Below are positions 8,712-58,652 of a stretch of 64,000 bases of DNA, in pieces. Position 1 is the stretch's first letter; every line of letters begins with the position of its first letter. The position numbers and the translations under genes were made by a program. Origin of the DNA: Candidatus Saccharimonadales bacterium (GTDB lineage Bacteria > Patescibacteriota > Saccharimonadia > Saccharimonadales > EFPC-124); assembly GCA_035280845.1 (NCBI GenBank), contig DATEFB010000004.1, forward strand, positions 18,341 through 82,340, read 5' to 3'. Below the pieces are notes generated by a model, which had not been told where the DNA came from, did not search any database, and saw only the letters and a list, made by a program, of their open reading frames with translations.

Positions 8712-9189
8712 GGCAGACATAACTATCGTGAAAACGTTTGATGCGCCCGTGCAGTCGGTATGGAAGTACTGGTCCGACCCGGTCTATTTTAGGCAATGGT
8801 GGGGGCCAGCCGACGCCACATGCATAGCATGCGATATGGATTTTACGATTGGCGGGACGTTTCTTAACTGCCTGCAGATACAAGATGCAGACGGCAAACC
8901 CATGGACGTATGGGCTACGGGCACCTACAAAGTGATTGAGCCTTACAAAAAGCTTGTTTTTACCGACAGCTTTGCTGATAAAGACGGCAACATCGTGTCC
9001 TCGTCTTATTACGGTATGAGAGGAATCGACGACGAGCTGGAAGTCGACCTTACCTTTGAGTCATTGGGCGACATGACCAAAATGACACTCCGGCACACGA
9101 AACTGGGCGAAACCACGCAAGCAGCTCGCGACGCTATGGACGTCAGCTGGAAAGAATCACTCAATAAAATAATGAGGATATTAGAATGA
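8698..9189 (+). CDS. SRPBCC (AHSA1/Aha1-like) domain protein
   Basis: 163 aa: FDAPVQSVWKYWSDPVYFRQWWGP.... Overlaps the ArsR gene by 14 nt and the next gene by ATGA. Confidence 0.8.
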   Translation: MTANKADITIVKTFDAPVQSVWKYWSDPVYFRQWWGPADATCIACDMDFTIGGTFLNCLQIQDADGKPMDVWATGTYKVIEPYKKLVFTDSFADKDGNIVSSSYYGMRGIDDELEVDLTFESLGDMTKMTLRHTKLGETTQAARDAMDVSWKESLNKIMRILE

Positions 9190-10529
9190 AAACACAAACG
9201 CAAATCGACTTACAGCAAGCGTTCACTGGGACTATTATTCTGCCTGGCGACAAAGCCTACGACGAAGCTAGGTCTATCCTGTTTCGCAGGGGCTCGCCTG
9301 CCCTTATTGCTATGGCCGAAACGAGCGATGATGTAGCGCTCGCCCTTAATTACGCTAAGCAACACGAGCTCGTCATATCGGTCCGTAGTGGTGGCCACAG
9401 TAACGCTGGTCTCAGCACGAACGATGGCGGCATTATTATTGATGTCAGTCGCATGAATACAGTTGAAGTTATTGACCACGCCGCTGGACGGGTTCGCATT
9501 GGCGCGGGTGCCCATTGGGGTGATATCGCTAAAACGTTGCACGCTTCAGGATTGGCAATCAGCTCTGGCGATACCAATACGGTAGGCGCAAGTGGCTTGA
9601 TGTTGGGCGCGGGAATCGGCTGGATGGTGCGCAAGTACGGCCTGGCTATAGATAGTTTAGTGCGCGCCGAAGTCGTTACCGCGGACGGGCAACTGGTTGT
9701 AGCCGATGCCACGACTAATCCTGATTTGTTTTGGGCGGTTCGCGGTGGAGGCGGGAATTTTGGCGTTGTCGTATCACTGGAGTGCATTGCCCATAAGGTT
9801 TCCGATGTCTTTTTTGGGTCGATTACGTACACGCCCGATGACCCCACTGCTTTGCTTACGGGCTGGCGGGATTACATGCGTTCGGCTCCAGAAGATTTGA
9901 CGACAACGGCGCTTTTATTGCCCGCCAATATGATGGGCGAGCATCCTGCCATGTTTGTTATTACCTGCTGCTGGGCGAACGATCAGGAAGCAGCCGCGAA
10001 TGCTGCATTGGAGCCACTGCGCAAACTTGGCATCCCACTACATGACGACATTAAGCGGAAGGCATATTATGAGGCGCTCGAGGATGCCCATACGCTGCCC
10101 GACGGTGTGCACAGTGAAGTGAACAATGCACTCTTCCCCGACTTTAGCGATGCGGTCATTAAGAAAATAGTTACCGCCTATAGCCAACACGGCCGCATGT
10201 CGCAGATCCGGGGTCTCGGCGGTGCTATGAGCCGGGTTGCTGCTGACGCCACGGCGTTTGCCCACCGCGATGCCGAAGTCATGGTTCTTATGCCTATATT
10301 CATGCCAGCAGGCACAACAGAGGAAGAGATTCAGAAAATATTGCAGCCATGGCGCGAGATCGCCACAGATGCTACCGGAGCATACATAAACTTCTTTAGC
10401 CGCGTAACGGACCGCGAGCGCGCAGCCTCGTACCCGCCAGCAACATATAACCGGCTTGCGGTAATTAAGGGGCGGTATGACCCGGACAATGTTTTTAACC
10501 AGAACCTCAATATAGAGCCGAAGCATTAG
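9186..10529 (+). CDS. FAD-binding (PCMH-type) oxidoreductase with BBE-like C-terminus
   Basis: 447 aa: SVRSGGHSNAG, GAGIGWMVRKYGLAIDSL, WAVRGGGGNFGVV, C-terminal RLAVIKGRYDPDNVFNQNLNIEP. Confidence 0.85.
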   Translation: MKTQTQIDLQQAFTGTIILPGDKAYDEARSILFRRGSPALIAMAETSDDVALALNYAKQHELVISVRSGGHSNAGLSTNDGGIIIDVSRMNTVEVIDHAAGRVRIGAGAHWGDIAKTLHASGLAISSGDTNTVGASGLMLGAGIGWMVRKYGLAIDSLVRAEVVTADGQLVVADATTNPDLFWAVRGGGGNFGVVVSLECIAHKVSDVFFGSITYTPDDPTALLTGWRDYMRSAPEDLTTTALLLPANMMGEHPAMFVITCCWANDQEAAANAALEPLRKLGIPLHDDIKRKAYYEALEDAHTLPDGVHSEVNNALFPDFSDAVIKKIVTAYSQHGRMSQIRGLGGAMSRVAADATAFAHRDAEVMVLMPIFMPAGTTEEEIQKILQPWREIATDATGAYINFFSRVTDRERAASYPPATYNRLAVIKGRYDPDNVFNQNLNIEPKH

Positions 10530-14179: not shown

Positions 14180-14770
14180 ATGAGAAAAATAGTTGTTACT
14201 GAATTCGTTACATTGGATGGAGTCATGCAAGCGCCCGGTGGCGCCGAAGACGGTTTTAAATTTGCTGGTTGGAGCGCGCCATATTACGACGCCGCACTCG
14301 ATGAAATCGCAGAAAAGCAAAAGAAGCCTGCCAAAGACTTCCTTTTGGGCAGGAAAACCTACGAGATCTTTGCTTCCTTCTTCCCGTCGGAACAAGGCCA
14401 GCAAATTTGGCCCGGCAACAATGACATTACAAAGTACGTTGTTTCTAAGACCATGAAGAAAGCTGATTGGAAAAACACAGTAATCCTGAGTAGTGTCGAA
14501 GATATTGGAAAGCTTAAGGATTCAGAAGGCTCTGACCTTCAGGTGAGTGGCAGCGGTGTTCTGGTTCAGACACTGCTCAAGCATGATTTAGTAGACGAGC
14601 TATGGCTTCTTATTCATCCGTTGACGCTCGGCACTGGTAACAAATTATTCGCCGACGGCACGATTCCCGCAGCGTTCAAACTGGTAGAGAGCACGCCAAC
14701 ATCGAGCGGAGTCATTTGCGCCCACTACGAGCGTGCTGGCGATGTTACCCTAGGGACAATGGGAGGCTAG
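14180..14770 (+). CDS. RibD_C / dihydrofolate-reductase-like family protein
   Basis: Starts at MRKIVVTEFVTLDGVMQ (ATG 14180). The longer track ORF from 14117 overlaps the previous gene. LLGRKTYEIF, LQVSGSGVLVQTLLKHDLVDELWLLIHPLTLG. Confidence 0.8.
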   Translation: MRKIVVTEFVTLDGVMQAPGGAEDGFKFAGWSAPYYDAALDEIAEKQKKPAKDFLLGRKTYEIFASFFPSEQGQQIWPGNNDITKYVVSKTMKKADWKNTVILSSVEDIGKLKDSEGSDLQVSGSGVLVQTLLKHDLVDELWLLIHPLTLGTGNKLFADGTIPAAFKLVESTPTSSGVICAHYERAGDVTLGTMGG

Positions 14771-15192
14771 CCAAAAACTGACCCGCCACCGCGAACTGTT
14801 TCCTGGATGCGGGGAATGAGCGCACTGCGCTGCTCGCGTACCGACTGCAGCCATTGCTGCGGCAGGTTCTCCTGGGGCACTCGCTTTGCGCCCCACTCGG
14901 CCAGCTCAAGAAGCACGGGGACAAGCTCTAACCCGTCTTCGGTGAGCTGGTATATTTCTTTGCGCCCGTCTTGCGGGTGGGGCTTCTTTACAAGCAGGCC
15001 TTTCGCTTGTAGCTGCACCAGGCGGTTAGCGAGGATGTTGCGCGCAATCCCCTCGTCTGACGCCAGGAATTCATTATATGTTTTTTTGCCAAAGTAAACG
15101 ATGTCTCTGAGAATAAGCAGAGACCAGGCGTCCCCAACCATTTCTAGCGAGAAAGTGATTGGGCAATTTGATCGTGGTTTAACGTGACTCAT
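14767..15192 (-). CDS. HxlR-family transcriptional regulator
   Basis: 141 aa: CPITFSLEMVGDAWSLLILRDIVYFGKKTYNEF.... Paralogue of 58740-59201. Confidence 0.85.
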   Translation of the reverse strand: MSHVKPRSNCPITFSLEMVGDAWSLLILRDIVYFGKKTYNEFLASDEGIARNILANRLVQLQAKGLLVKKPHPQDGRKEIYQLTEDGLELVPVLLELAEWGAKRVPQENLPQQWLQSVREQRSALIPRIQETVRGGGSVFG

Positions 15193-15273
15193 AATTTATT
15201 GCTTTTACTATACACATAGTATACTATTTAGGTTGTAAAATGCAACCTAACATGAAAAAGAAGGATTAATTTA

Positions 15274-15825
15274 ATGGGAACGTTACTGGCATTCGAATGG
15301 CTGAGCGCAGATGGCGTTTTTGACGCCAACAACATGGACGAATGGTTTTTTCCATACGACAGCGCCGAGCGGCGTGCAGTTATTAAAGACGCGTACCAAC
15401 AGGCCGATGTGCTATTGATGGGCCGCAACACCTACGAAATGCTTGCGCCGTATTGGTCGGGGCTTCCGGACGATGATAAAGATGGCCTGGCGGGTGTGAT
15501 TACCCATACGCCAAAATTTGTCGCTTCGGACGGGCCAGTGGTAGCCAAGTGGGGCGAGACGACCCTGCTTAAGGGTGACGTTGAGGCCGAAGTTGAAAAG
15601 CTAAAAGACACCGTGGGTACTGTTTTGATTATTGGCAGTGCCACATTGGCTGAATCGCTGGCTCAGGCCGGACTCGTTGACGGATATAAATTGTTGGTCC
15701 AGCCATTTATAATGGGAACCGGCAGGCGTTTCTTTAGCAATGCAATGAAAGCCCCGGTAGAGCTTGCTGGAGTCAAGGAATGCGGCCAGGGCATATTGCT
15801 GCTTGATTATCAGGTTAAGCATTAA
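15274..15825 (+). CDS. RibD_C / dihydrofolate-reductase-like family protein
   Basis: 183 aa: LLMGRNTYEMLAPYW, LIIGSATLAESLAQAGLVDGYKLLVQPFIMG. Confidence 0.8.
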   Translation: MGTLLAFEWLSADGVFDANNMDEWFFPYDSAERRAVIKDAYQQADVLLMGRNTYEMLAPYWSGLPDDDKDGLAGVITHTPKFVASDGPVVAKWGETTLLKGDVEAEVEKLKDTVGTVLIIGSATLAESLAQAGLVDGYKLLVQPFIMGTGRRFFSNAMKAPVELAGVKECGQGILLLDYQVKH

Positions 15826-15852
15826 GTACCTCTAAGTCATAAAAGGAGCAGC

Positions 15853-16440
15853 ATGCGAAAATTATTACTACAGATGCAAACCTCAATCGACATGTTTGTC
15901 GGTGATGATGACGGCGATACTAGTTGGATGAAGTGGCATTGGAACACCGATTGGACCTGGAGTACCGAGCTGCAACAGTATCATATTGATACGACCGCCG
16001 CTGCCGATTGCATATTATTGAGCGACAAAATGGCCGAAGAAGGCTTTATCGACCACTGGGGAGCCATGGCTAAGCAAACCGGTAACCCGGAATCTGCTTT
16101 TGCCAGGAATATCACCAACGCCCAAAAAGTTATCTTCGGGACTTCCCTGAAGGACGCGCGGTGGGAAAATAGCACCATAGCCAAGGGGGATCTTGCTTCT
16201 GTCGTGCACAGCTTAAAGCAAGCCCCAGGCAAGAACCTTTTGGCATTTGGCGGCGCGCGATTCGCCTCGTCACTTATTAACGCAGACCTTGTAGATGAGT
16301 TTCATTTAATTGTTAACCCGACCGTTCTTGGCTCCGGCTTGCCCATATTCAGCACAATTCCATCTGCCAGGGATCTGACCCTGGTAAGCGCTACTCCCTA
16401 CCCAGACGAGGTGGTTGTTTTGCGGTACGCCAAAAAGTAA
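15853..16440 (+). CDS. RibD_C / dihydrofolate-reductase-like family protein (divergent)
   Basis: 195 aa: MRKLLLQMQTSIDMFV, LLAFGGARFASSLINADLVDEFHLIVNPTVLG. Confidence 0.75.
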   Translation: MRKLLLQMQTSIDMFVGDDDGDTSWMKWHWNTDWTWSTELQQYHIDTTAAADCILLSDKMAEEGFIDHWGAMAKQTGNPESAFARNITNAQKVIFGTSLKDARWENSTIAKGDLASVVHSLKQAPGKNLLAFGGARFASSLINADLVDEFHLIVNPTVLGSGLPIFSTIPSARDLTLVSATPYPDEVVVLRYAKK

Positions 16441-16457
16441 TAGAATGTAAGTATTAC

Positions 16458-16670
16458 ATGAAAAAGTTAGACATTCGTCTCTTGGCCCTATATATGATCG
16501 GCGCGATTATTGTGAGCGTCATTGTGCAGTTTGTCTTGGATGGCCTGCAACTTACCCCGGGCTGGGAGCTACGCAACCTCCTCGTTGGGTCAGGAATAGG
16601 CATCATGCTGTACGTGTGGGATTTTATGAAGGCGCAAAAAAAGAGCGAATTACCCGAAGATAAATCCTAG
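16458..16670 (+). CDS. Small two-helix membrane protein
   Basis: 70-aa ORF with two hydrophobic helices, tightly packed with neighbouring genes. Confidence 0.45.
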   Translation: MKKLDIRLLALYMIGAIIVSVIVQFVLDGLQLTPGWELRNLLVGSGIGIMLYVWDFMKAQKKSELPEDKS

Positions 16671-16690
16671 CTGCAGGCAGTAATTTTAGT

Positions 16691-17320
16691 GTGCCAATAT
16701 GGCATACTAGAGCAATGCAAACAGCACTCATAGTTATTGGAAGCCTTATAGCGGCTTTGGGCACATTACCCTATATTATTGCAACGGTTAAAGGAGACGT
16801 GAAGCCACGGCTTGTTACGTGGCTAACGTGGGCATTACTTACGGGAATAGCGGGAGCCGCGGCGCTGAGCGCGAATCAGTTAGGGAGCGCCTTATTCGCG
16901 TTTTTGGGAACGCTCGCCACAGGCTCGGTAGTCGTTGCCGGGTTCAGGTTTGGCGACCGCACGTTTAAAACGCTCGACGTTGTAAGCTTGGCAGGCGTAG
17001 TGGTTGGATTGGCGCTGTGGTATGTGCTGGACGATCCTGCCTATGCTGTTTTGGCGGCTATCGCCATTGATTTTGTGGGGCTGCTCCCTACTCTGGCACA
17101 TGCCTGGACGGCTCCGCGCGAGGAAGCACCAAGCGCCTTCGTATGCGTCGGAATTGGTGGTGCAATTACTGTCGCTGCTATTATTATGAGCGGCGATTTT
17201 TCGTTGACTGCGCTGGGCTACCCGCTGTATGCTGCGGTATCTATGGGCATTTGTGCAGCAATTATTTTGGTACGTGGCAGGATCGTGCTGCCGCCCATCA
17301 AAGAAGAAATGGCAGGATAG
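16691..17320 (+). CDS. Polytopic membrane protein (about 6-7 TM), family uncertain
   Basis: 209-aa ORF (GTG 16691; ATG at 16715 also possible). Hydrophobic throughout. Its stop lies 4 nt (17321-17324) before the GTG start of the next gene. Confidence 0.6.
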   Translation: MPIWHTRAMQTALIVIGSLIAALGTLPYIIATVKGDVKPRLVTWLTWALLTGIAGAAALSANQLGSALFAFLGTLATGSVVVAGFRFGDRTFKTLDVVSLAGVVVGLALWYVLDDPAYAVLAAIAIDFVGLLPTLAHAWTAPREEAPSAFVCVGIGGAITVAAIIMSGDFSLTALGYPLYAAVSMGICAAIILVRGRIVLPPIKEEMAG

Positions 17321-17324
17321 CTCT

Positions 17325-18455
17325 GTGGGTGTAGGTGAACACACATATGGCATACTGCATGACCATGGTTATGACCCACGGGCCACTGCCGAGCTCGATC
17401 CATTGGGCCTTGATGATTTTTTTACGGGCGGAGAATTCCACGCAATTAACAGTAGCGAGATCGATCCTGCCGAGGCACGCAAGCGCATCGGAGATGTGGC
17501 AATGCGTGTCGGGCACATGATTGTCCGGCATAGGTTGATCGACCCAACGATTCCCGAGCTCAATTATGCTGCAATTCGCGATGCCGATATGGTGCTGGGA
17601 AGTGCCCTGCTGCATGGCCACAGGCCGGTGGGACGGGGCGGTTTTATGCCCGGGCTTGGCGACCTGCCCCATGCGCTTGTTAGGCTTGGCGCTGCTACCC
17701 AAGGCGTGCCTCGTGGCACTTTTTACACGTACACCGACATGAATCCGGGTGACAGGCTGCGGCGTTTTACCAACTTAGATGGCGAAGAAGTTTTTATTGG
17801 TGCTCTACGTGATTCGTCGTTAAAACTTGGTGCGGCGCTGCTGACTCTTTGCCACGCCGATGCCGAAGATCCAGACCAAACCCTTGCGGCACTACAGCTG
17901 ACCCAAGAGGGCATGTCTGCTACTGTTCAATCCATGGTGACTGTCAGAAGGAACCAGGAACTCGGCAAAAAATTTGGCGCGTACATTCAACCTTTCTTCC
18001 GGGATACGCTTATAGGCTTCCGTCGCCATTTTGCGCCAGGAGGCAGCCAACTGCCCAGTTCGGCACTCACCTACATTCTTGAAGGCCGCGACGAGCCTGG
18101 CCAGGCCGGAGAGCGGGCGCGTGCGCTGCATGCAGGGACGTACAGATACCTGCCCCGGGTATTCCGCGATGCAGTTGATACCTGGGAGCGCGCGCACGGA
18201 GACGCAAGCCTGCGCACGCTGCTGCACGAGCAAGGGGTCCCGTTGGATGATCCCCGGCAGGTTGCCATGCATGGCATTCGGGATCTCCATACCAAGTTTA
18301 GAACGGTGCACTTGGCAACGGCAGTCGATAGCTTTAACCAGCGCCCAGACAACGCGCGCGGTAGTGGCGGCGGCACGCCCGGAGAGCTGAACGAGCTGAC
18401 TAATGATGCGCGACTGCGTCGTGGTATCCCAAGGCAAAGGACAGCCGATGTCTAG
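17325..18455 (+). CDS. TDO/IDO/PrnB-like (DUF1864-type) putative heme enzyme
   Basis: About 376 aa from GTG 17325 (AGGA 7 nt upstream); the track ORF from 17229 overlaps the previous gene. The C-terminal segment FRTVHLATAVDSF...ARGSGGGTPGE resembles the proximal-His plus GTGGSSG segment of the tryptophan-dioxygenase superfamily. The family call is by eye only. Confidence 0.5.
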   Translation: MGVGEHTYGILHDHGYDPRATAELDPLGLDDFFTGGEFHAINSSEIDPAEARKRIGDVAMRVGHMIVRHRLIDPTIPELNYAAIRDADMVLGSALLHGHRPVGRGGFMPGLGDLPHALVRLGAATQGVPRGTFYTYTDMNPGDRLRRFTNLDGEEVFIGALRDSSLKLGAALLTLCHADAEDPDQTLAALQLTQEGMSATVQSMVTVRRNQELGKKFGAYIQPFFRDTLIGFRRHFAPGGSQLPSSALTYILEGRDEPGQAGERARALHAGTYRYLPRVFRDAVDTWERAHGDASLRTLLHEQGVPLDDPRQVAMHGIRDLHTKFRTVHLATAVDSFNQRPDNARGSGGGTPGELNELTNDARLRRGIPRQRTADV

Positions 18456-19566
18456 TTTTTTGTCTCCGCAGGATAGCAAGCGACTGCACGATTATATTGC
18501 CCACGTCGATGCAGGCATCGGGCACATGATTGGCTATCCGATGGCCATTGATTTTGATTACAGCGAGACTTACCCTTTGTTCGCCCACGAGCTCAACAAC
18601 ATCGGCGACCCTTACATTGATCCGACGCATATTGCCCACAGCAAAGAGATGGAGCGCGAGGTGGTGGAATTCTACGCTGATTTATTCAGGGCTCCTAAAA
18701 ACGATCGGTGGGGATACGTAACCGGTGGTGGTACCGAAGGAAACCTGTACGCGTTGTACACGGCGCGCGAAGCCTTGCCCGACGCCATTACGGTATATTC
18801 GGCGGCTGCGCACTACAGCGTCGAGAAAGCAATCCATATGCTGCGCATGCCCAGCATTAAAATTGACACCCAGCCGAGCGGCGAAATAGATTACCAAAAA
18901 CTTGAACACGCGTTGGGCAATTATCCCAATAGGGCGGTCATTATGGTTGCAAACATCGGCACAACAATGACCGAGGCAAAAGATAACGTGCAGACAATTC
19001 GAAATATATTAGCGGCCCAGAAAGTGCTTCACCATTACATCCATAGTGACGCGGCTTTCGCCGGCATCTACACGTCGCTCATCCGGCCCCGCCATCCATT
19101 CGACTTTGCGGATGGCGCCGACAGCGTGTCTATTAGTGGCCATAAGTTTATTGGCTCACCTATTCCTTGTGGTGTGATTGTGACCCGGAAAAGCCACCAC
19201 GATTCCCTGAACCGTACTATAGAATACACAGGCTCCCCGGACGCGACAATTAGTGGGTCGCGCGATGGCCATACGGCTGTCATGATGTGGTATGCCATAA
19301 AACGCTGGGGTGTAGAGGGCTTTCGCAAGCGGGCGCAGGAAAGCATTGCGCTCGCTGACTACACCCAAGAGCGTCTGATGGACATTGGCTATAGCGTGCT
19401 TCGTAATCCAAATACGCTCACGATATCTTTTGAAACGCCGCCCGAAACAATCCGAAAAAAATGGCAGCTCGCGACCGAACACGGGTGGAGCCATATTATT
19501 TGCTCGCCTGGAATGACCCGGCAACAGATTGATGACTTGGTCCGGGATCTTACGGCGCCTGTGTAA
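18448..19566 (+). CDS. PLP-dependent group II decarboxylase, histidine-decarboxylase-like
   Basis: Collinear with enterobacterial HdcA: GYPMAIDFDY, WGYVTGGGTEGNLYA, ANIGTTM, SISGHKFIGSPIPCGVIVTRK (PLP lysine), ISGSRDGH. ATG 18448 overlaps the upstream stop (ATGTCTAG). Confidence 0.85.
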   Translation: MSSFLSPQDSKRLHDYIAHVDAGIGHMIGYPMAIDFDYSETYPLFAHELNNIGDPYIDPTHIAHSKEMEREVVEFYADLFRAPKNDRWGYVTGGGTEGNLYALYTAREALPDAITVYSAAAHYSVEKAIHMLRMPSIKIDTQPSGEIDYQKLEHALGNYPNRAVIMVANIGTTMTEAKDNVQTIRNILAAQKVLHHYIHSDAAFAGIYTSLIRPRHPFDFADGADSVSISGHKFIGSPIPCGVIVTRKSHHDSLNRTIEYTGSPDATISGSRDGHTAVMMWYAIKRWGVEGFRKRAQESIALADYTQERLMDIGYSVLRNPNTLTISFETPPETIRKKWQLATEHGWSHIICSPGMTRQQIDDLVRDLTAPV

Positions 19567-19583
19567 GATGGTACTATCAAGCT

Positions 19584-20150
19584 ATGAATACTCCGCACCC
19601 GACCTTTTTTGCAACGCAGTCCGACTTTAGGCAGTGGCTCCAGGCAAACCACGCCAGCGCCACCGAGCTGCTCGTTGGTTTTTACAAGACAACTAGCGGC
19701 AAGCCAAGCATGACCTGGCCGGAATCTGTTGACCAGGCGTTCTGTTTTGGTTGGATCGACGGTGTCCGCAAGTCTATCGACGAAGCCAGTTACAGTATTC
19801 GTTTTACACCCAGAAAACCCACGAGCATTTGGAGCGCGGTTAACATTGCAAAAGTTGAGCACCTGACCAACCAGGGCTTAATGCAGGCTGCCGGCCTTGC
19901 GGCTTTCTCGCTCCGCAAAGAAGAAAAATCAAAGATCTATAGTTTCGAGAACGAAGCCATGCAACTAAGCAGTGCCTTCGAGGCAACCTTTAAGGCTGAT
20001 CCAGCAGCCTGGGGCTTCTTTACGGCGCAAGCACCCTGGTACCAAAAATCCACCATTCACTGGATCATGACCGCCAAGCAGGAAGCGACGCGACTATCCC
20101 GGCTCCAGAAAACAATTGTCGCAAGCCATTCTCAGAAAAGACTCGCCTAA
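19584..20150 (+). CDS. YdeI/OmpD-associated family protein
   Basis: 188 aa: FRQWLQANH, FGWIDGVRKSIDEASYSIRFTPRKPTSIWSAVNIAKVE. Confidence 0.75.
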   Translation: MNTPHPTFFATQSDFRQWLQANHASATELLVGFYKTTSGKPSMTWPESVDQAFCFGWIDGVRKSIDEASYSIRFTPRKPTSIWSAVNIAKVEHLTNQGLMQAAGLAAFSLRKEEKSKIYSFENEAMQLSSAFEATFKADPAAWGFFTAQAPWYQKSTIHWIMTAKQEATRLSRLQKTIVASHSQKRLA

Positions 20151-20327
20151 GCCTGCATTGTGTGGTTAAATGCCAGTAAAGTGGTCGTCCTCACTACCAC
20201 CATGCGCCACTCATTCGGCGAACATCATGGACGGACGCAATGACCGCTAAGAATGAGTAGGCCCGCGCTACTCAAGGATGTCGTCGAACCTGTGTAGCAC
20301 AGGCCCTCATAATTAATAAGGGACACT

Positions 20328-20507
20328 ATGGCACATCAGCACAAAAGCCCGCAGGAGCAAGATAGCTTCTGGTACGAGAACAGCCTGAAGCACTGGCGCC
20401 GCTATGGCTCATGGTTCAGCTGGGGCAGCCCGGTGGGACTTGGCCTGTTCTGTATTTCAGTAGCGGTAACGCTCTGGATTCTGAGCAAGGCCTTTGGCTG
20501 GAGTTAA
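20328..20507 (+). CDS. Possible 59-aa membrane peptide (below ORF-track cutoff)
   Basis: ATG 20328 to TAA 20505-20507 (MAHQHKSPQEQDSFWYENSLKHWRRYGSWFSWGSPVGLGLFCISVAVTLWILSKAFGWS), with one C-terminal TM helix. A perfect terminator hairpin follows directly. Confidence 0.35.
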   Translation: MAHQHKSPQEQDSFWYENSLKHWRRYGSWFSWGSPVGLGLFCISVAVTLWILSKAFGWS

Positions 20508-20520
20508 CCTCCAACCATCG

Positions 20521-20551
20521 AAACGGCACCGTCATTTGGCGGTGCCGTTTT
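20521..20551. terminator. Intrinsic terminator between convergent genes
   Basis: Perfect 11-bp stem aaacggcaccg / cggtgccgttt with an 8-nt loop. The A/T runs are included in the arms, so it is usable on both strands. Confidence 0.6.
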
Positions 20552-20563
20552 ACGTGGGTGTCG

Positions 20564-21766
20564 TTAGTCGGCAGCCTGCTCTTTAAAATCCTTGGCTGTT
20601 GCCGTTTTAATAAGCAGTGCTGCAATAATGGCGGCCGATATCAGGACCATCCAGCCTCCTCTAAATACGCCAAGCGAATCGGTAATCCACCCGAACAACA
20701 GCGAGAACGGCACGAACGCCATCCACGCGAACGCGCTGACACCAGAGGCTACGCCGCTGCGGATTTTAGAAGGAATCTCGTCGTGCATGAGCCGTGTAAA
20801 GAGTACACTTATTACAATAACAAGGGTGATAATAACAATCTGGGCCGCCGAGACAACCAGCGCGTCCCGCACAAAAACCATCGCCAGACTGCTTAGCAGG
20901 AGCGCGGCAATAACCAACCCCAGCTGTAGTGGCTTGTGAAACTTAATTCTTCCGGCAAGCAGACCGCCAAAACCAAGCGCCGCAGTAAGCCCACCAAAGG
21001 CAAGCCCGTACAGTGCTGTTGACGTATTAAGCTCAACCAACCATAGCTGGCCAAACTCCAGCAGGACCTGCACCAGCATAGAGGTAAGCACGAGGATTGC
21101 TACAATTGGCAGGCTTTTGCCTCTCTTAAGGATTGTTTTGTAAGTAACGGCTATTTGAGAAGTGAATGATTCAGCAACTTTGCTTTTATGCAGCTGCGGT
21201 TCTTTAAACTTCCAAAGCGCCCAAACAGAAATAGCTACTGCTGGGATGGTCGCAAAGAACGTTGCCCGTGGCGACAGGGCGGTAGCAATAAGCCCGCCGG
21301 TGATTGCCGCGATAAGCCCGCCGATGCTACTGAATAGCCGGACTTTGCCGATGCTTTTCTCGAATGACTTGCTGTCTTTTTCTTCTTCGAGCACCGTGTC
21401 GTATACTACCGACTCGAACGTGCCCGATGCTAGCGCAAAGAAAATGCCTAAAATCAGCGCGCTGACAAAATAGGCTGGCACGCCGTAGCTTAAGCCGCCA
21501 ACCAACGCGCTTGCAATTGAGGCTACACTTGCAATAATAAGTACGTTTTTGCGGCTCCAGCGGTCAGCCAAAATACCCGAAGGGATTTCTATGAGCGGTA
21601 CAAACACGGCGTATACGGCGGCCATCAGGCCAATGGCTGCGGCATCGAAGCCAATTTCGGTCATAAAAAGTTTTTCGGTAGCGACCCAGAACGTCATCCA
21701 CTGAAAAAATGAAGCCACATATAATGGCAAGAGTCTTCGCTGCACACGGCTGCTAAATAATTTCAT
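20564..21766 (-). CDS. MFS transporter
   Basis: 400 aa, 12 hydrophobic segments, MFS loop motif GILADRWSRK. Confidence 0.85.
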   Translation of the reverse strand: MKLFSSRVQRRLLPLYVASFFQWMTFWVATEKLFMTEIGFDAAAIGLMAAVYAVFVPLIEIPSGILADRWSRKNVLIIASVASIASALVGGLSYGVPAYFVSALILGIFFALASGTFESVVYDTVLEEEKDSKSFEKSIGKVRLFSSIGGLIAAITGGLIATALSPRATFFATIPAVAISVWALWKFKEPQLHKSKVAESFTSQIAVTYKTILKRGKSLPIVAILVLTSMLVQVLLEFGQLWLVELNTSTALYGLAFGGLTAALGFGGLLAGRIKFHKPLQLGLVIAALLLSSLAMVFVRDALVVSAAQIVIITLVIVISVLFTRLMHDEIPSKIRSGVASGVSAFAWMAFVPFSLLFGWITDSLGVFRGGWMVLISAAIIAALLIKTATAKDFKEQAAD

Positions 21767-55958: not shown

Positions 55959-57302
55959 TTATTTTGTAAGGTATTGGGCCGAAAGCTGGCGGTAATATTT
56001 TGAACTTAACGCCATGAGCGTGACAATCAAACCAATAACGCCCGCGATAACAAACACCAGCGCGATGCCACGGTTGGCACCCGTGCCGAACCAGCTCCCT
56101 ATTGCCTGTGCGCCTGCTCCGTCGGTCATGAACGGAATAAAGAACAATTGCGTCAGCGGGCCAATCAAAAATGCTGTTAGGGGTGACGCGGCCTGCTCAA
56201 CACTCTGGGCAAAGCCGAATACGCGGCCCTGCCGTTCGTGTGGCACGACTTTTTGCAGGATGGTTTGTTCGGTTGCCTCGACAATTGGCATAAGACACAT
56301 GTACACAAAAATACCAACGCCAAGCAGCCAGATCCATGGCTGGATGGTGAACAACGCCGAGATTACCCACAACACAACGTTGGCCAAAAGCATTGTTTTG
56401 AGCGGGTTTTTGCCCAGGCCCTTTTTAGCAATAACAAGCCCGCCCGCAATGAAGCCCAGGCTCACCACGCCCCACAAAAAGCCCCACATCTGGACTGACA
56501 TAAGTGACAGGCCGTAGGCGTCCATGAGCGCCATAAAGCCGCCGCCCAAAAAGTTGTTGAATGTCGTGAACAGAATCAGCGCGACTAGGCCGGGAATGCC
56601 CACGACAATCTTCCATGTGCCCTTGAGGTCTACTTTTTTTGGCGCTGCATCGGTGTGGACGATTCTCTTTTCGGGTACGGTAATAACTCCCAAATGCACT
56701 AAAGCAAGCAGCGTTGCGAAGATCGCCAGAATCAGTACGTAGAACATGCCGCCCCAGCCAACAAGCACACCACTAATAAATGACGTCACTAACATGGCGA
56801 TGCCCATGGTGCTTCCCACGAGGCCGTTGGCTTTGTCGCGCCTGCCTTCGGGAATCAGAATGGTCACGGTGGTCGGCAGCGCAATGTTGCGTATGTTCCC
56901 TACCAGTACGCCAAACATGACCACGCTAATAAGCACCCAGAGCGATACGCTCGCCGGGTCCTTAAACGTTGTCTGGTCGGCTAGCTGGTAGATGGCGAAC
57001 GCGACTATATAAAAGACGAGCGAGACAAGGCTCGACCACATCATGATTTGTTTTTTGCGGTGATGGTCGACCAAGCTGCCGAACCAAATGCCAGTCAGTG
57101 CCGTAAAGACCACGTAAATACCAGCGATCACGCCCGTTACAAATACGGACTGGGTCTCAAGGTAAGCGTAAAATGTTATCGCGAACCAGACCGTAAAGTT
57201 AATGATTGATGCCAGCAAGGTGTTGCTGAGCAGGTGGTAAAACGACCGCAGGCCGCCCGCCGGAGTGTCTTTTAATGGAGTTGTTTTTGTAGGTGATGCC
57301 AT
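55959..57302 (-). CDS. MFS transporter
   Basis: 447 aa, 12-14 hydrophobic segments, 15 nt downstream of the UvrA paralogue. Confidence 0.85.
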   Translation of the reverse strand: MASPTKTTPLKDTPAGGLRSFYHLLSNTLLASIINFTVWFAITFYAYLETQSVFVTGVIAGIYVVFTALTGIWFGSLVDHHRKKQIMMWSSLVSLVFYIVAFAIYQLADQTTFKDPASVSLWVLISVVMFGVLVGNIRNIALPTTVTILIPEGRRDKANGLVGSTMGIAMLVTSFISGVLVGWGGMFYVLILAIFATLLALVHLGVITVPEKRIVHTDAAPKKVDLKGTWKIVVGIPGLVALILFTTFNNFLGGGFMALMDAYGLSLMSVQMWGFLWGVVSLGFIAGGLVIAKKGLGKNPLKTMLLANVVLWVISALFTIQPWIWLLGVGIFVYMCLMPIVEATEQTILQKVVPHERQGRVFGFAQSVEQAASPLTAFLIGPLTQLFFIPFMTDGAGAQAIGSWFGTGANRGIALVFVIAGVIGLIVTLMALSSKYYRQLSAQYLTK

Positions 57303-57314
57303 GCAGGTCCTTGC

Positions 57315-58652
57315 TTACGGTTCAATATTATAGTTTTGACGGAACAGGTTGTCTGGGTCATATGTACGCTTTATGACGGCCAGTTTTTCGTGCGTAGCGG
57401 TAGGGTATGCAGCTGCCAAATCATGCGCGTCGGCTTGGCTTAGCAGGTTGGCGTATGCACCGTTGCCCGTTGCGGACAGTGCTTTCCAGGGCTGCAGACC
57501 TTGTTCAATTGTTTCGGCACTGGCGTCTCCCGGAAAGAACGACGCTCCAACCAGCAGAATTTCGCTACTGCGGTGCGCAAATGCCGTAGCATCGGACGCG
57601 ATCCGGTTCATAGCGCCGCCCACGCTGCGGATTTGCAAGACTGGCGCGGGCGCCCCTTCTTTGTAGAGTGCAGCTATATCATGAATAAGCTCGTCGGTCA
57701 TGGCGTCCATAAACACGTTTTTGGCGACGACGTGCATGCCTCCTGGCGGATGTGCTTCTTGCAGAACGTCGGCGTAGGCCATTGGCTTAATATCTGTCAC
57801 AGGGTTGTTGCCCAGCTTTGTGAGCGGCGCAATAGTGGCGTTTGCCTCGGCTTCGTCGGTGCTGGCATAACAGACTGCAATAGTGGCATTGGCGGGCGCA
57901 TTGGGGCCAAATGACGGGAATGTTATAAGCATGCTGCTTAGCTTTTCGTCGGCGGTGCGCATGGTGTCGCGCCAGCCTGTTAGTACGGCGGGCAAATCCT
58001 GTATGCCGTATTTAATTGAGCCAGATACGACCCCTTCTAATGGGTGCGCTGTAAAGTCAAAATGAGTAACGACGCCGAAGTTTCCGCCGCCGCCGCGAAT
58101 GCCCCAGAACAGGTCTGCGTTTTCTTGTGCGCTTAGCCGCAGGACTTCGCCGCTGGCTGTGACAATTTCTGCCCCGACCAAACTGTCGATAGCCAGGCCA
58201 TATTGCCGCACCATCCAGCCAATGCCGCCGCCGAGGGTTAGCCCCCCAACACCTACAGTGGTTGTGTCGCCCGAAGAGAGCGCCAGGTTGTGTTCACCCA
58301 GGGTTTTGGCAACGGCGCCCCATTCTGCTCCGGAGCCAATCCGCACCAGACGGGCGTGGGCATCAAGAATCTCTACTGAGTTCAGGGCGCGCACGTCTAT
58401 AACAATGCCGCCTTCGTTTGTGCCAAACCCGGGGCCACTGTGTCCGCCGCTGCGCACCGAGAGCGGGCCGCCAACTTCTTTTGCGTAGGCAATCGCCGCA
58501 ACAACATCCTCCGTGGTGTGTGGTTGCAATACAACGGCTGGCGATCCTGTCCGCATCATGGTTTTGCGGGCTTCCTCGTAGCCGGAATCCTCTGGGAGAA
58601 TAATGTTCCCGCTGAATGTTTGCTTGAGGGTGACGATGGCGTTGGTGCTCAT
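57315..58652 (-). CDS. FAD-binding (PCMH-type) oxidoreductase with BBE-like C-terminus; paralogue of 9186-10529
   Basis: 445 aa: SVRSGGHSGPG, GGGIGWMVRQYGLAIDSL, WGIRGGGGNFGVV, KLAVIKRTYDPDNLFRQNYNIEP. Confidence 0.85.
   Translation of the reverse strand: MSTNAIVTLKQTFSGNIILPEDSGYEEARKTMMRTGSPAVVLQPHTTEDVVAAIAYAKEVGGPLSVRSGGHSGPGFGTNEGGIVIDVRALNSVEILDAHARLVRIGSGAEWGAVAKTLGEHNLALSSGDTTTVGVGGLTLGGGIGWMVRQYGLAIDSLVGAEIVTASGEVLRLSAQENADLFWGIRGGGGNFGVVTHFDFTAHPLEGVVSGSIKYGIQDLPAVLTGWRDTMRTADEKLSSMLITFPSFGPNAPANATIAVCYASTDEAEANATIAPLTKLGNNPVTDIKPMAYADVLQEAHPPGGMHVVAKNVFMDAMTDELIHDIAALYKEGAPAPVLQIRSVGGAMNRIASDATAFAHRSSEILLVGASFFPGDASAETIEQGLQPWKALSATGNGAYANLLSQADAHDLAAAYPTATHEKLAVIKRTYDPDNLFRQNYNIEP

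Follow-up and report, generated by a model that had tools for sequence, protein, structure and literature searches.

A divergent PrnB-family protein encoded in overlap with a pyridoxal phosphate decarboxylase in a Saccharimonadales bacterium: a candidate decarboxylase-first pathway

The 64,000-nucleotide stretch of contig DATEFB010000004.1 from a Candidatus Saccharimonadales bacterium that is analysed here (the window) carries two overlapping genes, g3 and g4, whose products may form a two-enzyme pathway in which decarboxylation comes first. By its sequence and predicted structure, g3 is a divergent PrnB-family protein with a predicted histidine-ligated heme fold, an outlier of its family and no ordinary PrnB. 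Its partner g4 is, on sequence grounds, a group II pyridoxal phosphate (PLP) decarboxylase of the subfamily that includes histidine decarboxylase (HDC) and plant serine decarboxylase (SerDC). We hold, with about as much belief as doubt, that the two enzymes act in this order and are co-expressed with two lineage-specific membrane proteins, g1 and g2, encoded just upstream. The best reading of the pair is as a lineage-specific acquisition in one soil Saccharimonadales species, with a like enzyme logic found in high-GC bacteria that use a tryptophan-type decarboxylase. The finding is a comparative one drawn from few loci, and is of interest to heme enzymology and saccharibacterial biology alike.

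The two overlapping genes and their products

The initial annotation had assigned g3 to the heme dioxygenase superfamily by eye, and named this as its weak link. The assignment was right, since the sequence match to PrnB, the predicted fold, the position of His329 and the GSGG loop all agree. Searched with phmmer against PDB sequences, g3 matches the PrnB entries 2v7i (E 2.9e-10, residues 82-360) and 9dfg (1.4e-6); its score for the Pfam family PrnB (PF08933) is 16.5 bits, under the gathering threshold of 27. An AlphaFold2 (AF2) model built on a 31-member family alignment (g3 and 30 relatives) has a predicted local distance difference test score (pLDDT) of 88.8 and a predicted template-modelling score (pTM) of 0.88. 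With this model Foldseek ranks PrnB structures best (TM 0.73-0.80, E ~1e-12), followed by Shewanella SO4414 and then human IDO1, the IDO1/TDO/SO4414 group being matched at E values of 1e-7 to 1e-5. Both the profile and the structure comparisons suggested at the outset for the open reading frame (ORF) at 17325-18455 therefore recover a relationship to PrnB.

The residues expected of a heme-binding member of this family are present. The FRTVH...GSGGG motif singled out by the initial annotation does exist and occupies residues 325-350. Its His329 aligns with the histidine of the FRAPH motif of PfPrnB, residue 313 by count in the phmmer alignment, which is the proximal heme ligand of that enzyme; the column is histidine in 100% of ~148 family sequences. 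All 23 invariant columns of the 31-member alignment are kept in g3, among them Arg85, Asp86, Pro129, Asn140, Arg146, Glu154, Phe325, Arg326, His329, Arg340 and Gly346-Ser347-Gly348. Every one of the 31 members matches PF08933 at E<=0.01 (g3 weakly, with the score given above) and 17 match IDO too, while g3 alone gives no Pfam IDO match. The conserved GSGG loop (G346-S347-G348-G349) aligns with that of PrnB, in which Ser319 of FbPrnB contacts the substrate (PMC11791213); TDO and IDO have a GTGG loop (PMC5758539). Gly240 and Ser347 of g3 are the counterparts of FbPrnB contacts to the substrate carboxylate.

How far g3 has diverged is evident from its relatives. Exhaustive HMMER searching of 1.84 billion cluster representatives found 194 of them; one is 94% identical and the remainder at most 36%, the best of these being 31% identical (E 1e-23). 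A word-index protein search returned one g3 cluster, and a peptide-pattern search for close relatives had no match among 185,579 GTDB genomes or JGI metagenome contigs. Identity to PfPrnB and FbPrnB is 23-24%, and a neighbour-joining tree puts g3 on a long branch (0.87 substitutions per site), outside the small clade that contains the two crystallised PrnBs.

For g4, Pfam Pyridoxal_deC (PF00282) scores 93.9 bits against a threshold of 27, and the NCBIfam equivalog for histidine decarboxylase (NF002748) 442.6 bits against a cut-off of 305. Its PDB matches to Photobacterium HDC (7erv, 285 bits) and plant SerDC (8jik, 270 bits) are almost equal. The second motif quoted by the initial annotation, SGHKFIGSPIPCG, is likewise present, at residues 230-242, and includes the PLP lysine K233 (in SGHK); the catalytic-loop tyrosine is Y260, in IEYTG. 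The importance of this tyrosine is established (PMC11407765), and since both K233 and Y260 are kept, g4 is expected to act as a genuine decarboxylase and not as an aldehyde synthase.

The earlier call of a histidine decarboxylase thus stands as to family, on the NCBIfam score and the PLP lysine, and is in doubt as to substrate. Validated HDCs drawn from the plasmid collection and the PDB alignment (AngH of pJM1, the A. baumannii and Klebsiella enzymes, and P. phosphoreum 7erv) all carry GYPE-S, NNCGDW and SGHKM. At the same sites g4 has GYPMA, NNIGDP and SGHKF, with Met32 where the HDCs have Glu, and its relatives have GYP-[M/V/I/L/A/G], NN-[I/L]-GDP and SGHKF. Of 2,979 homologues found, the 120 closest were listed; not one of these (0/120) has Glu at the third position of YP-x, and NNCGDW is likewise absent from them. 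Histidine is doubtful as the substrate of g4 because this signature is missing. In plant SerDC and alanine decarboxylase (AlaDC) the third position of YP-x sets the specificity for Ser or Ala (PMC11407765), and SDC-like enzymes use Phe, Met, Leu and Trp, or Tyr, DOPA, Phe and Trp (PMC4177580). To judge from Met32 at this position, the substrate is most likely Trp or some other amino acid of hydrophobic or aromatic character, to which this residue seems better suited than to histidine. The homologues listed (P0173-P0291, from Chitinophaga, Pedobacter, Saccharimonadales and Methylomirabilota, for example) are called 'histidine decarboxylase' wherever the source gives a name; for g4 and its 120 closest listed homologues this label is probably an annotation over-call, given the residues at these sites. 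One 57% relative of g4 (P0176; JGI 3300078620, on a 19-kb contig) lies divergent from genes for an HTH_31 regulator and a cytochrome P450; here again a heme enzyme is encoded close to a decarboxylase of this clade, and in the same metagenome, which may be coincidence.

Recurrence of the pair and a conserved arginine

Pairs of this kind recur in two high-GC bacteria. In L036 (JAESGR010001579.1; GC 73%) a PrnB-like gene (Pfam 50.7 bits) runs at its stop 4 nt into the gene for a 499-aa Pyridoxal_deC protein (295 bits). In L040 (Ga0679461_0033377; GC 69%) the order is inverted: the stop of a gene for a 470-aa decarboxylase overlaps by 4 nt the PrnB-like gene P0073, and a hydrophobic ORF or membrane protein comes next. 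The conservation of the two genes as neighbours elsewhere, on which the initial annotation had made its reading depend, is thus borne out. The decarboxylases of L036 and L040 are 69.5% identical and their PrnB-like proteins 42% identical. Compared with g4, these decarboxylases show 25-29% identity over part of their length only and are therefore non-orthologous to it, implying that a PrnB-like protein has been joined to a decarboxylase at least twice. In the library searched we found no paper linking a PrnB-family enzyme with a decarboxylase partner.

The partners in L036 and L040 belong to the aromatic amino acid decarboxylase (AAAD) family, their PDB matches being tyrosine decarboxylase (TyrDC, 420 bits), Catharanthus tryptophan decarboxylase (TDC, 383) and human DOPA decarboxylase (DDC, 371); JGI names such enzymes 'aromatic-L-amino-acid/L-tryptophan decarboxylase'. 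Both carry Ala and Gly at the equivalents of Ala103 and Gly370 of the Catharanthus enzyme (CrTDC), where Gly370 shifts preference towards indolic and away from phenolic substrates and Ala103 towards substrates without a hydroxyl group (bioRxiv 10.1101/404970).

A second link between the two genes lies in the PrnB-like proteins themselves. The arginine of the 'lRPYF' segment, one of the best-conserved columns in the family, is present in 134/148 sequences. It is replaced by Gln222 in g3 (and by Gln in its 94% relative, P0001), by Leu in L036 and by Val in L040 (P0073), g3 and L036 having been compared here with about 145 family members. When the family profile is aligned to IDO1 the column falls on FFSVLRIYLSGW, whose arginine is Arg231 in IDO1 numbering. 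Arg231 of IDO1 is equivalent to Arg144 of human TDO (hTDO), which forms a bidentate ion pair with the carboxylate of L-Trp (PMC5758539). Canonical PrnB keeps the arginine; it binds Trp far more tightly (4.1 uM) than tryptamine (411 uM), whose amine nitrogen coordinates the heme iron (PMC11791213).

Loss of the arginine goes with the presence of a decarboxylase. Across 26 loci with readable flanks (the Arg-less P0121, P0122, P0066, P0094, P0115, P0116 and P0132 being left out), an adjacent decarboxylase gene is found for 3/4 Arg-less genes, overlapping in all three, as against 0/22 Arg-bearing ones. Fisher's test gives p = 0.0015, or 0.01 if L036 and L040 are treated as one event.

The wider family offers other partnerships. 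At 50% identity it falls into ~194 clusters, most of them uncharacterised and many saccharibacterial. The nearest relatives of g3 in a family-alignment search of GTDB genomes and JGI metagenomes are mostly from Saccharibacteria, and none has a decarboxylase neighbour. They belong to a conserved cassette (L008:7362-13611, L009, L010, L011, L001:9391-14898, L002:4934-10076 and L019-L035) that includes a ~175-aa family-less protein (MKIFFASS...), the PrnB-like gene and an overlapping gene for a ~363-aa GHMP-kinase-fold protein, the last with weak matches to homoserine kinase and beta-RFAP synthase. It further encodes a P-loop nucleotide-kinase-like protein and 1-3 S-adenosylmethionine (SAM) methyltransferases, with or without NUDIX or NDK, and has a Ham1/RdgB NTP pyrophosphatase gene on the opposite strand. 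This cassette looks like an uncharacterised pathway, of which ribosylation or phosphorylation of an aryl-amine product is one possibility. Subunits I and II of a cytochrome bd oxidase are likewise encoded on the L001 contig (L001:5012-6852), so that at least some cassette-bearing Saccharibacteria use heme proteins.

PrnB-family genes in the plasmid collection are all Arg-bearing. Two on Streptomyces plasmids, L039:11734-13727 (Streptomyces sp. 3211 plasmid p3211-2) and L038:11287-17267 (Streptomyces sp. NBC_01717 plasmid), overlap genes for other partners; on these linear plasmids one partner is a GNAT N-acetyltransferase, the other a flavin-dependent oxidoreductase, after which come genes for a ketosynthase and a carrier protein, while DoxX lies upstream. 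Since each context has its own partner enzyme, PrnB would be one case of a wider tailoring family, and the family seems to be one of general tailoring enzymes with context-specific partners.

The five-gene array and its setting

The five genes that include the pair all lie on the forward strand (Table 1), as the ORF listing and direct reading of the sequence agree, and are as tightly packed as first described. Between g1 and g2 there are 20 or 44 nt, depending on the start chosen for g2 (NCBI and JGI use the ATG at 16715). Only 4 nt separate the g2 stop from the GTG of g3, the ATG of g4 and the TAG of g3 fall together in the 8-nt overlap ATGTCTAG (18448-18455), and 17 nt lie between g4 and g5; the second and third of these junctions had been noted earlier and are confirmed.

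Table 1. Genes and predicted key codons of the array in the window
Feature	Position	Strand	Product or role	Basis or accession
g1	16458-16670	+	70 aa, small membrane protein with hydrophobic segment(s)	ORF and hydropathy; HKX72638.1
g2	16715 (ATG) or 16691 (GTG) to 17320	+	201/209 aa, ~6-7 hydrophobic helices	hydropathy
g3	17325 (GTG)-18455	+	376 aa, divergent PrnB-family (IDO-fold) predicted heme-type protein	HKX72640.1
g4	18448-19566	+	372 aa, group II PLP decarboxylase, HDC/SerDC-like	HKX72641.1
g5	19584-20150	+	188 aa, YdeI/OmdA family	Pfam OmdA 54.2 bits
g3 Gln222 codon	17988-17990	+	replaces conserved 'lRPYF' Arg	
g3 His329 codon	18309-18311	+	predicted proximal heme ligand	
g3 Ser347 codon	18363-18365	+	GSGG loop; counterpart of FbPrnB Ser319 and TDO/IDO GTGG Thr	

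The contig, of 90.9 kb, belongs to a metagenome-assembled genome, and NCBI lists the genes as VJM32_01350-01370 (proteins HKX72638-72642), with g3 labelled 'hypothetical protein' and g4 'histidine decarboxylase'. Sources differ on the start of g3 (17229, 17253 or 17325), NCBI giving 400 aa and JGI and ENA 376 aa from the GTG at 17325; the longest ORF, of 408 aa from an ATG at 17229, would overlap g2 by 92 nt. Both the family alignment and the AF2 model, which is confident at its N-terminus, point to the 376-aa form. The same-strand array begins upstream of g1, with a RibD_C gene ending at 16440, 17 nt before g1. Three paralogous genes with RibD_C (dihydrofolate-reductase-like) domains and an opposite-strand HxlR-type regulator lie directly upstream of g1 (14180-16440; regulator at 14767-15192, - strand). 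Counts in a promoter and terminator scan of 15700-20700 were at the level of shuffled sequence, so that the boundary of the operon is not definable; no Rfam family and no tRNA was found in the window.

The membrane proteins match little. No match to g1 was found in Pfam, NCBIfam or PADLOC. For g2 there is none in Pfam even at E<=10, none in NCBIfam and no relative in the PDB, and its AF2 model is unusable (pLDDT 46); it is a possible transporter. A PQ-loop/SWEET-type 3+1+3 transporter, prompted by the segments 'LPYI...' and 'LLPTL...', was rejected for g2, since there is no Pfam match, the model is poor and the N- and C-terminal halves show no repeat (score 27 against 31.9 +/- 6 for shuffles, z = -0.8). 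The C-terminal OmdA domain (PF13376) of g5 is above threshold (54.2 against 25.6 bits). A defence system was also rejected, PADLOC yielding only generic PLP-fold matches for g4.

The same five genes are found on a 4-kb JGI contig of the 94% relative; a further locus, L013, is the same strain (99.97% nucleotide identity). Relative to the JGI contig g2, g3 and g4 are each 94-95% identical in amino acid sequence (g2 94.5%), and since the three are equally diverged g3 appears to be maintained like its neighbours. Outside this clade the array is not kept together. Gene g1 is present on the contig of the 94% relative and absent from all other PrnB-like and decarboxylase loci examined, while g5 follows g4 in close relatives only and is absent after an 82% relative of the decarboxylase. 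The membrane proteins and YdeI protein are thus not conserved with the PrnB-like/decarboxylase pair.

The locus of the 82% relative, L004, has a RibD_C orthologue (71% amino acid identity), a 290-nt spacer and then the decarboxylase, without g1-g3. No alignable remnant of this spacer and no flanking repeat could be found as an insertion scar in the window, and g1-g3 show no compositional anomaly that would indicate foreign origin, their G+C content at third codon positions (GC3) being 0.52-0.62 and their codon-usage distance within the range of their neighbours. In L004 the gene order is HxlR - NmrA - RibD_C - decarboxylase, and the decarboxylase may for this reason belong historically with a RibD_C/HxlR group.

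Elsewhere the window carries two FAD_binding_4 oxidase genes, at 9186-10529 (+; also with a BBE, or berberine-bridge, domain) and 57315-58652 (-), and two MFS genes, at 20564-21766 (-) and 55959-57302 (-), the latter adjoining the second oxidase gene. An amidase and an Ldh_2 dehydrogenase are also encoded. We take this to be an accessory-gene-rich region for a Saccharibacterium.

Candidate pathway, alternatives and known systems

The class of g4 and the fold and ligand residues of g3 follow from the comparisons above; the substrate of g4 and the chemistry of g3 we infer from sequence motifs and the structural model. Decarboxylation first would mean that g4 strips the alpha-carboxylate from an amino acid to give an arylalkylamine, which would be tryptamine for the high-GC pairs and either tryptamine or another hydrophobic amine in the window. 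The amine would then be bound by g3, which would perform O2-dependent chemistry on the aromatic ring. One outcome could be a PrnB-type rearrangement of indole to aminophenylpyrrole, which would convert tryptamine to 3-(2-aminophenyl)pyrrole, with the built-in decarboxylation no longer needed; another could be an IDO-type ring opening to (formyl)kynuramine. Finally g1 and g2 might import the precursor or export the product.

Tentatively, and with more doubt than confidence, we would extend this to an undescribed class, in which Arg-less PrnB-like proteins and decarboxylases carry out PrnB/IDO-type ring chemistry on arylalkylamines as a 'split' pathway, the PLP enzyme doing the decarboxylation, with products of aminophenylpyrrole or kynuramine type. 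The Saccharibacterium, as an episymbiont, would have built its own version with a different decarboxylase family and a heme enzyme perhaps obtained from actinobacterial hosts, and would export the product through g1/g2 for use on its host or on competitors. Bacteria of the candidate phyla radiation have, as far as is known, minimal biosynthetic capacity. If true, a small-molecule pathway that depends on heme and comes with membrane proteins of its own would be one of few candidates for an effector secreted within the relationship between symbiont and host. The PrnB reaction is among the oddest in heme enzymology and is unsolved. A natural variant that lacks the carboxylate-recognition residue and has a separate decarboxylase would offer a simpler substrate (the amine) and a mutational handle (Gln222 versus Arg) for dissecting its chemistry.

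Several observations weigh against a decarboxylase-first pathway. The sample is small, with 2-3 independent events, and the Arg-less P0023 (Gln) lies beside genes for a glycosyltransferase and a nonribosomal peptide synthetase (NRPS) C domain, with no decarboxylase in view. A carboxylate-binding role for the arginine in PrnB is inferred from IDO and TDO only, and crystal structures of FbPrnB assign the carboxylate to Gly210, Gly211, Ser319 and a heme propionate, the arginine being unmentioned (PMC11791213). Given the long branch of g3, Gln222 could reflect general drift. PrnB activity has never been reconstituted in vitro (PMC11791213), and heme supply is uncertain: the scanned parts of the window showed no heme-related gene, though no examination aimed at heme was made. 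In Saccharimonadales the pair has been seen only in a single species-level clade, made up of near-identical strains and one 94% relative, and five close relatives of g4 (P0173, P0175, P0176, P0185 and P0201; 82, 62, 57, 57 and 57% identical) have no PrnB-like, g2-like or YdeI neighbour. Because the RibD_C and decarboxylase genes of L004 are direct neighbours, the 2-kb g1-g3 block has the look of an indel, which could by accident have produced the g3-g4 junction. Tight packing adds little: crude gene calls for the window give a median gap of 17 nt between 43 same-strand neighbours, with <=30 nt in 25/43, and since such spacing is normal in this genome it is weak evidence of a functional link.

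The main alternative is an accidental adjacency, in which g4 would be a stand-alone enzyme, g1-g3 a membrane-associated heme-protein module inserted before g4 or lost elsewhere, and co-transcription a by-product of compactness. The direct succession of RibD_C gene and decarboxylase in L004, across the 290-nt spacer and without g1-g3, speaks for this; other close decarboxylase relatives are solitary, gaps throughout the window are short, and most saccharibacterial PrnB-like genes sit in a different cassette. We nevertheless think accident unlikely, though it keeps some weight. Two unrelated high-GC contigs have an overlapping pair of the same kind, with a decarboxylase that is not orthologous to g4 and with the gene order inverted between them, and loss of the carboxylate-clamp arginine tracks the decarboxylase neighbour. 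In the window, moreover, the entire 290-nt spacer of L004 is gone and the g3 and g4 ORFs overlap, and g1-g3 bear no compositional sign of recent import. A further alternative is the reverse order of events, in which the heme enzyme would act on free Trp or His and g4 would then decarboxylate the modified amino acid, kynurenine to kynuramine for example. The g3-then-g4 gene order in the window and L036 agrees with this, as do Gly240 and Ser347, whose FbPrnB counterparts contact the substrate carboxylate (PMC11791213). It is improbable all the same: the arginine that aligns with the IDO1/TDO clamp is lost in exactly the decarboxylase-coupled members, the decarboxylase gene comes first in L040, and the partners in L036 and L040 resemble common AAADs of the Trp type, whose pocket has room for an indole, rather than enzymes for a ring-opened product. 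A PrnB-type rearrangement would also, on the accepted reaction, turn the alpha-amine into a ring nitrogen that a PLP decarboxylase could not use.

NCBIfam calls g4 a histidine decarboxylase above its cut-off, a polytopic membrane protein is encoded in the same array, and decarboxylase-antiporter pairs are a well-known design (PMC8465708); the locus might then exchange histidine for histamine, or another amino acid for its amine, to support pH homeostasis or proton-motive force, with g4 a true HDC, g2 the antiporter and g3 accessory or unrelated. This is very improbable, since g4 lacks the GYPE and NNCGDW of all four validated HDCs compared and is as near to plant serine decarboxylase as to HDC, g2 resembles no transporter family in Pfam, NCBIfam or the PDB, the relatives of the decarboxylase have no transporter partner, and g3 and its recurrence with decarboxylases elsewhere would be left unexplained. 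That the best PDB and Pfam matches of g3 are to PrnB might suggest part of a pyrrolnitrin-type pathway, for which we see hardly any chance. No halogenase (prnA, prnC) or Rieske N-oxygenase (prnD) occurs in the flanks of g3 (~9.2-25.7 kb) or among ten large ORFs scanned elsewhere in the window, g3 falls short of the Pfam gathering threshold, and PfPrnB and FbPrnB, at 23-24% identity, form a separate clade.

Set beside known systems, a decarboxylase-first pair would combine familiar parts in a new way. PrnB (2v7i, 9dfg; PF08933) resembles g3 in its fold, proximal histidine, GSGG loop and 'APGG' segment, and g3 has Tyr at the pocket position of FbPrnB Tyr104. Unlike PrnB, g3 has Gln for the 'lRPYF' Arg and no prnA, prnC or prnD in the scanned neighbourhood, and because its partner is a PLP decarboxylase its substrate is probably an amine and not 7-Cl-Trp. 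IDO1, TDO and SO4414 share with g3 the superfamily fold, the predicted His ligation and a homologous glycine-rich substrate loop, but they are far more distant from it than PrnB is; g3 is without their Arg231/Arg144 clamp, and no kynurenine-pathway genes (kynB, kynU) lie near it. Closest to g3 in sequence (27-32%), and of its own phylum, are the PrnB-like proteins of the saccharibacterial GHMP-kinase cassette. In contrast to g3, they keep the arginine and are never coupled to a decarboxylase.

The bacterial PLP HDCs (Morganella and Klebsiella Hdc, Vibrio anguillarum AngH, Acinetobacter BasG and 7erv) are of the same subfamily and length as g4, with collinear sequences and a shared SGHK-IGSPIPCG, and in tblastn comparisons g4 is 36-39% identical to AngH and to the A. 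baumannii and Klebsiella enzymes. It differs from them in having no link to siderophore genes or an HdcT-type transporter. Nor is there an adjacent APC/HdcP-type antiporter, as in amino acid/amine antiport systems, and g2 matches no transporter family. Equally similar to g4 are the plant SerDC-like enzymes (AtSerDC, CsAlaDC, tomato AAAD and the Medicago and Cicer aldehyde synthases), with which it has NN-L/I-GDP in common. Through the YP-x residue this plant subfamily switches among Ser, Ala, aromatic and hydrophobic substrates; its members are eukaryotic and have a zinc finger, whereas g4 has Met at the specificity position, and we know of no characterised SerDC-like member with Met there.

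The closest parallels in organisation are the AAAD/PrnB-like pairs of L036 and L040. They differ from the window pair in the type of decarboxylase, a 470-499-aa DDC/TDC-type enzyme as against the 372-aa HDC/SerDC type, in their high-GC host DNA and in having no homologues of g1, g2 or g5, and their PrnB-like proteins are 29-30% identical to g3. Like the window pair, they combine an overlap with a group II PLP decarboxylase gene and the replacement of the clamp arginine by a neutral residue.

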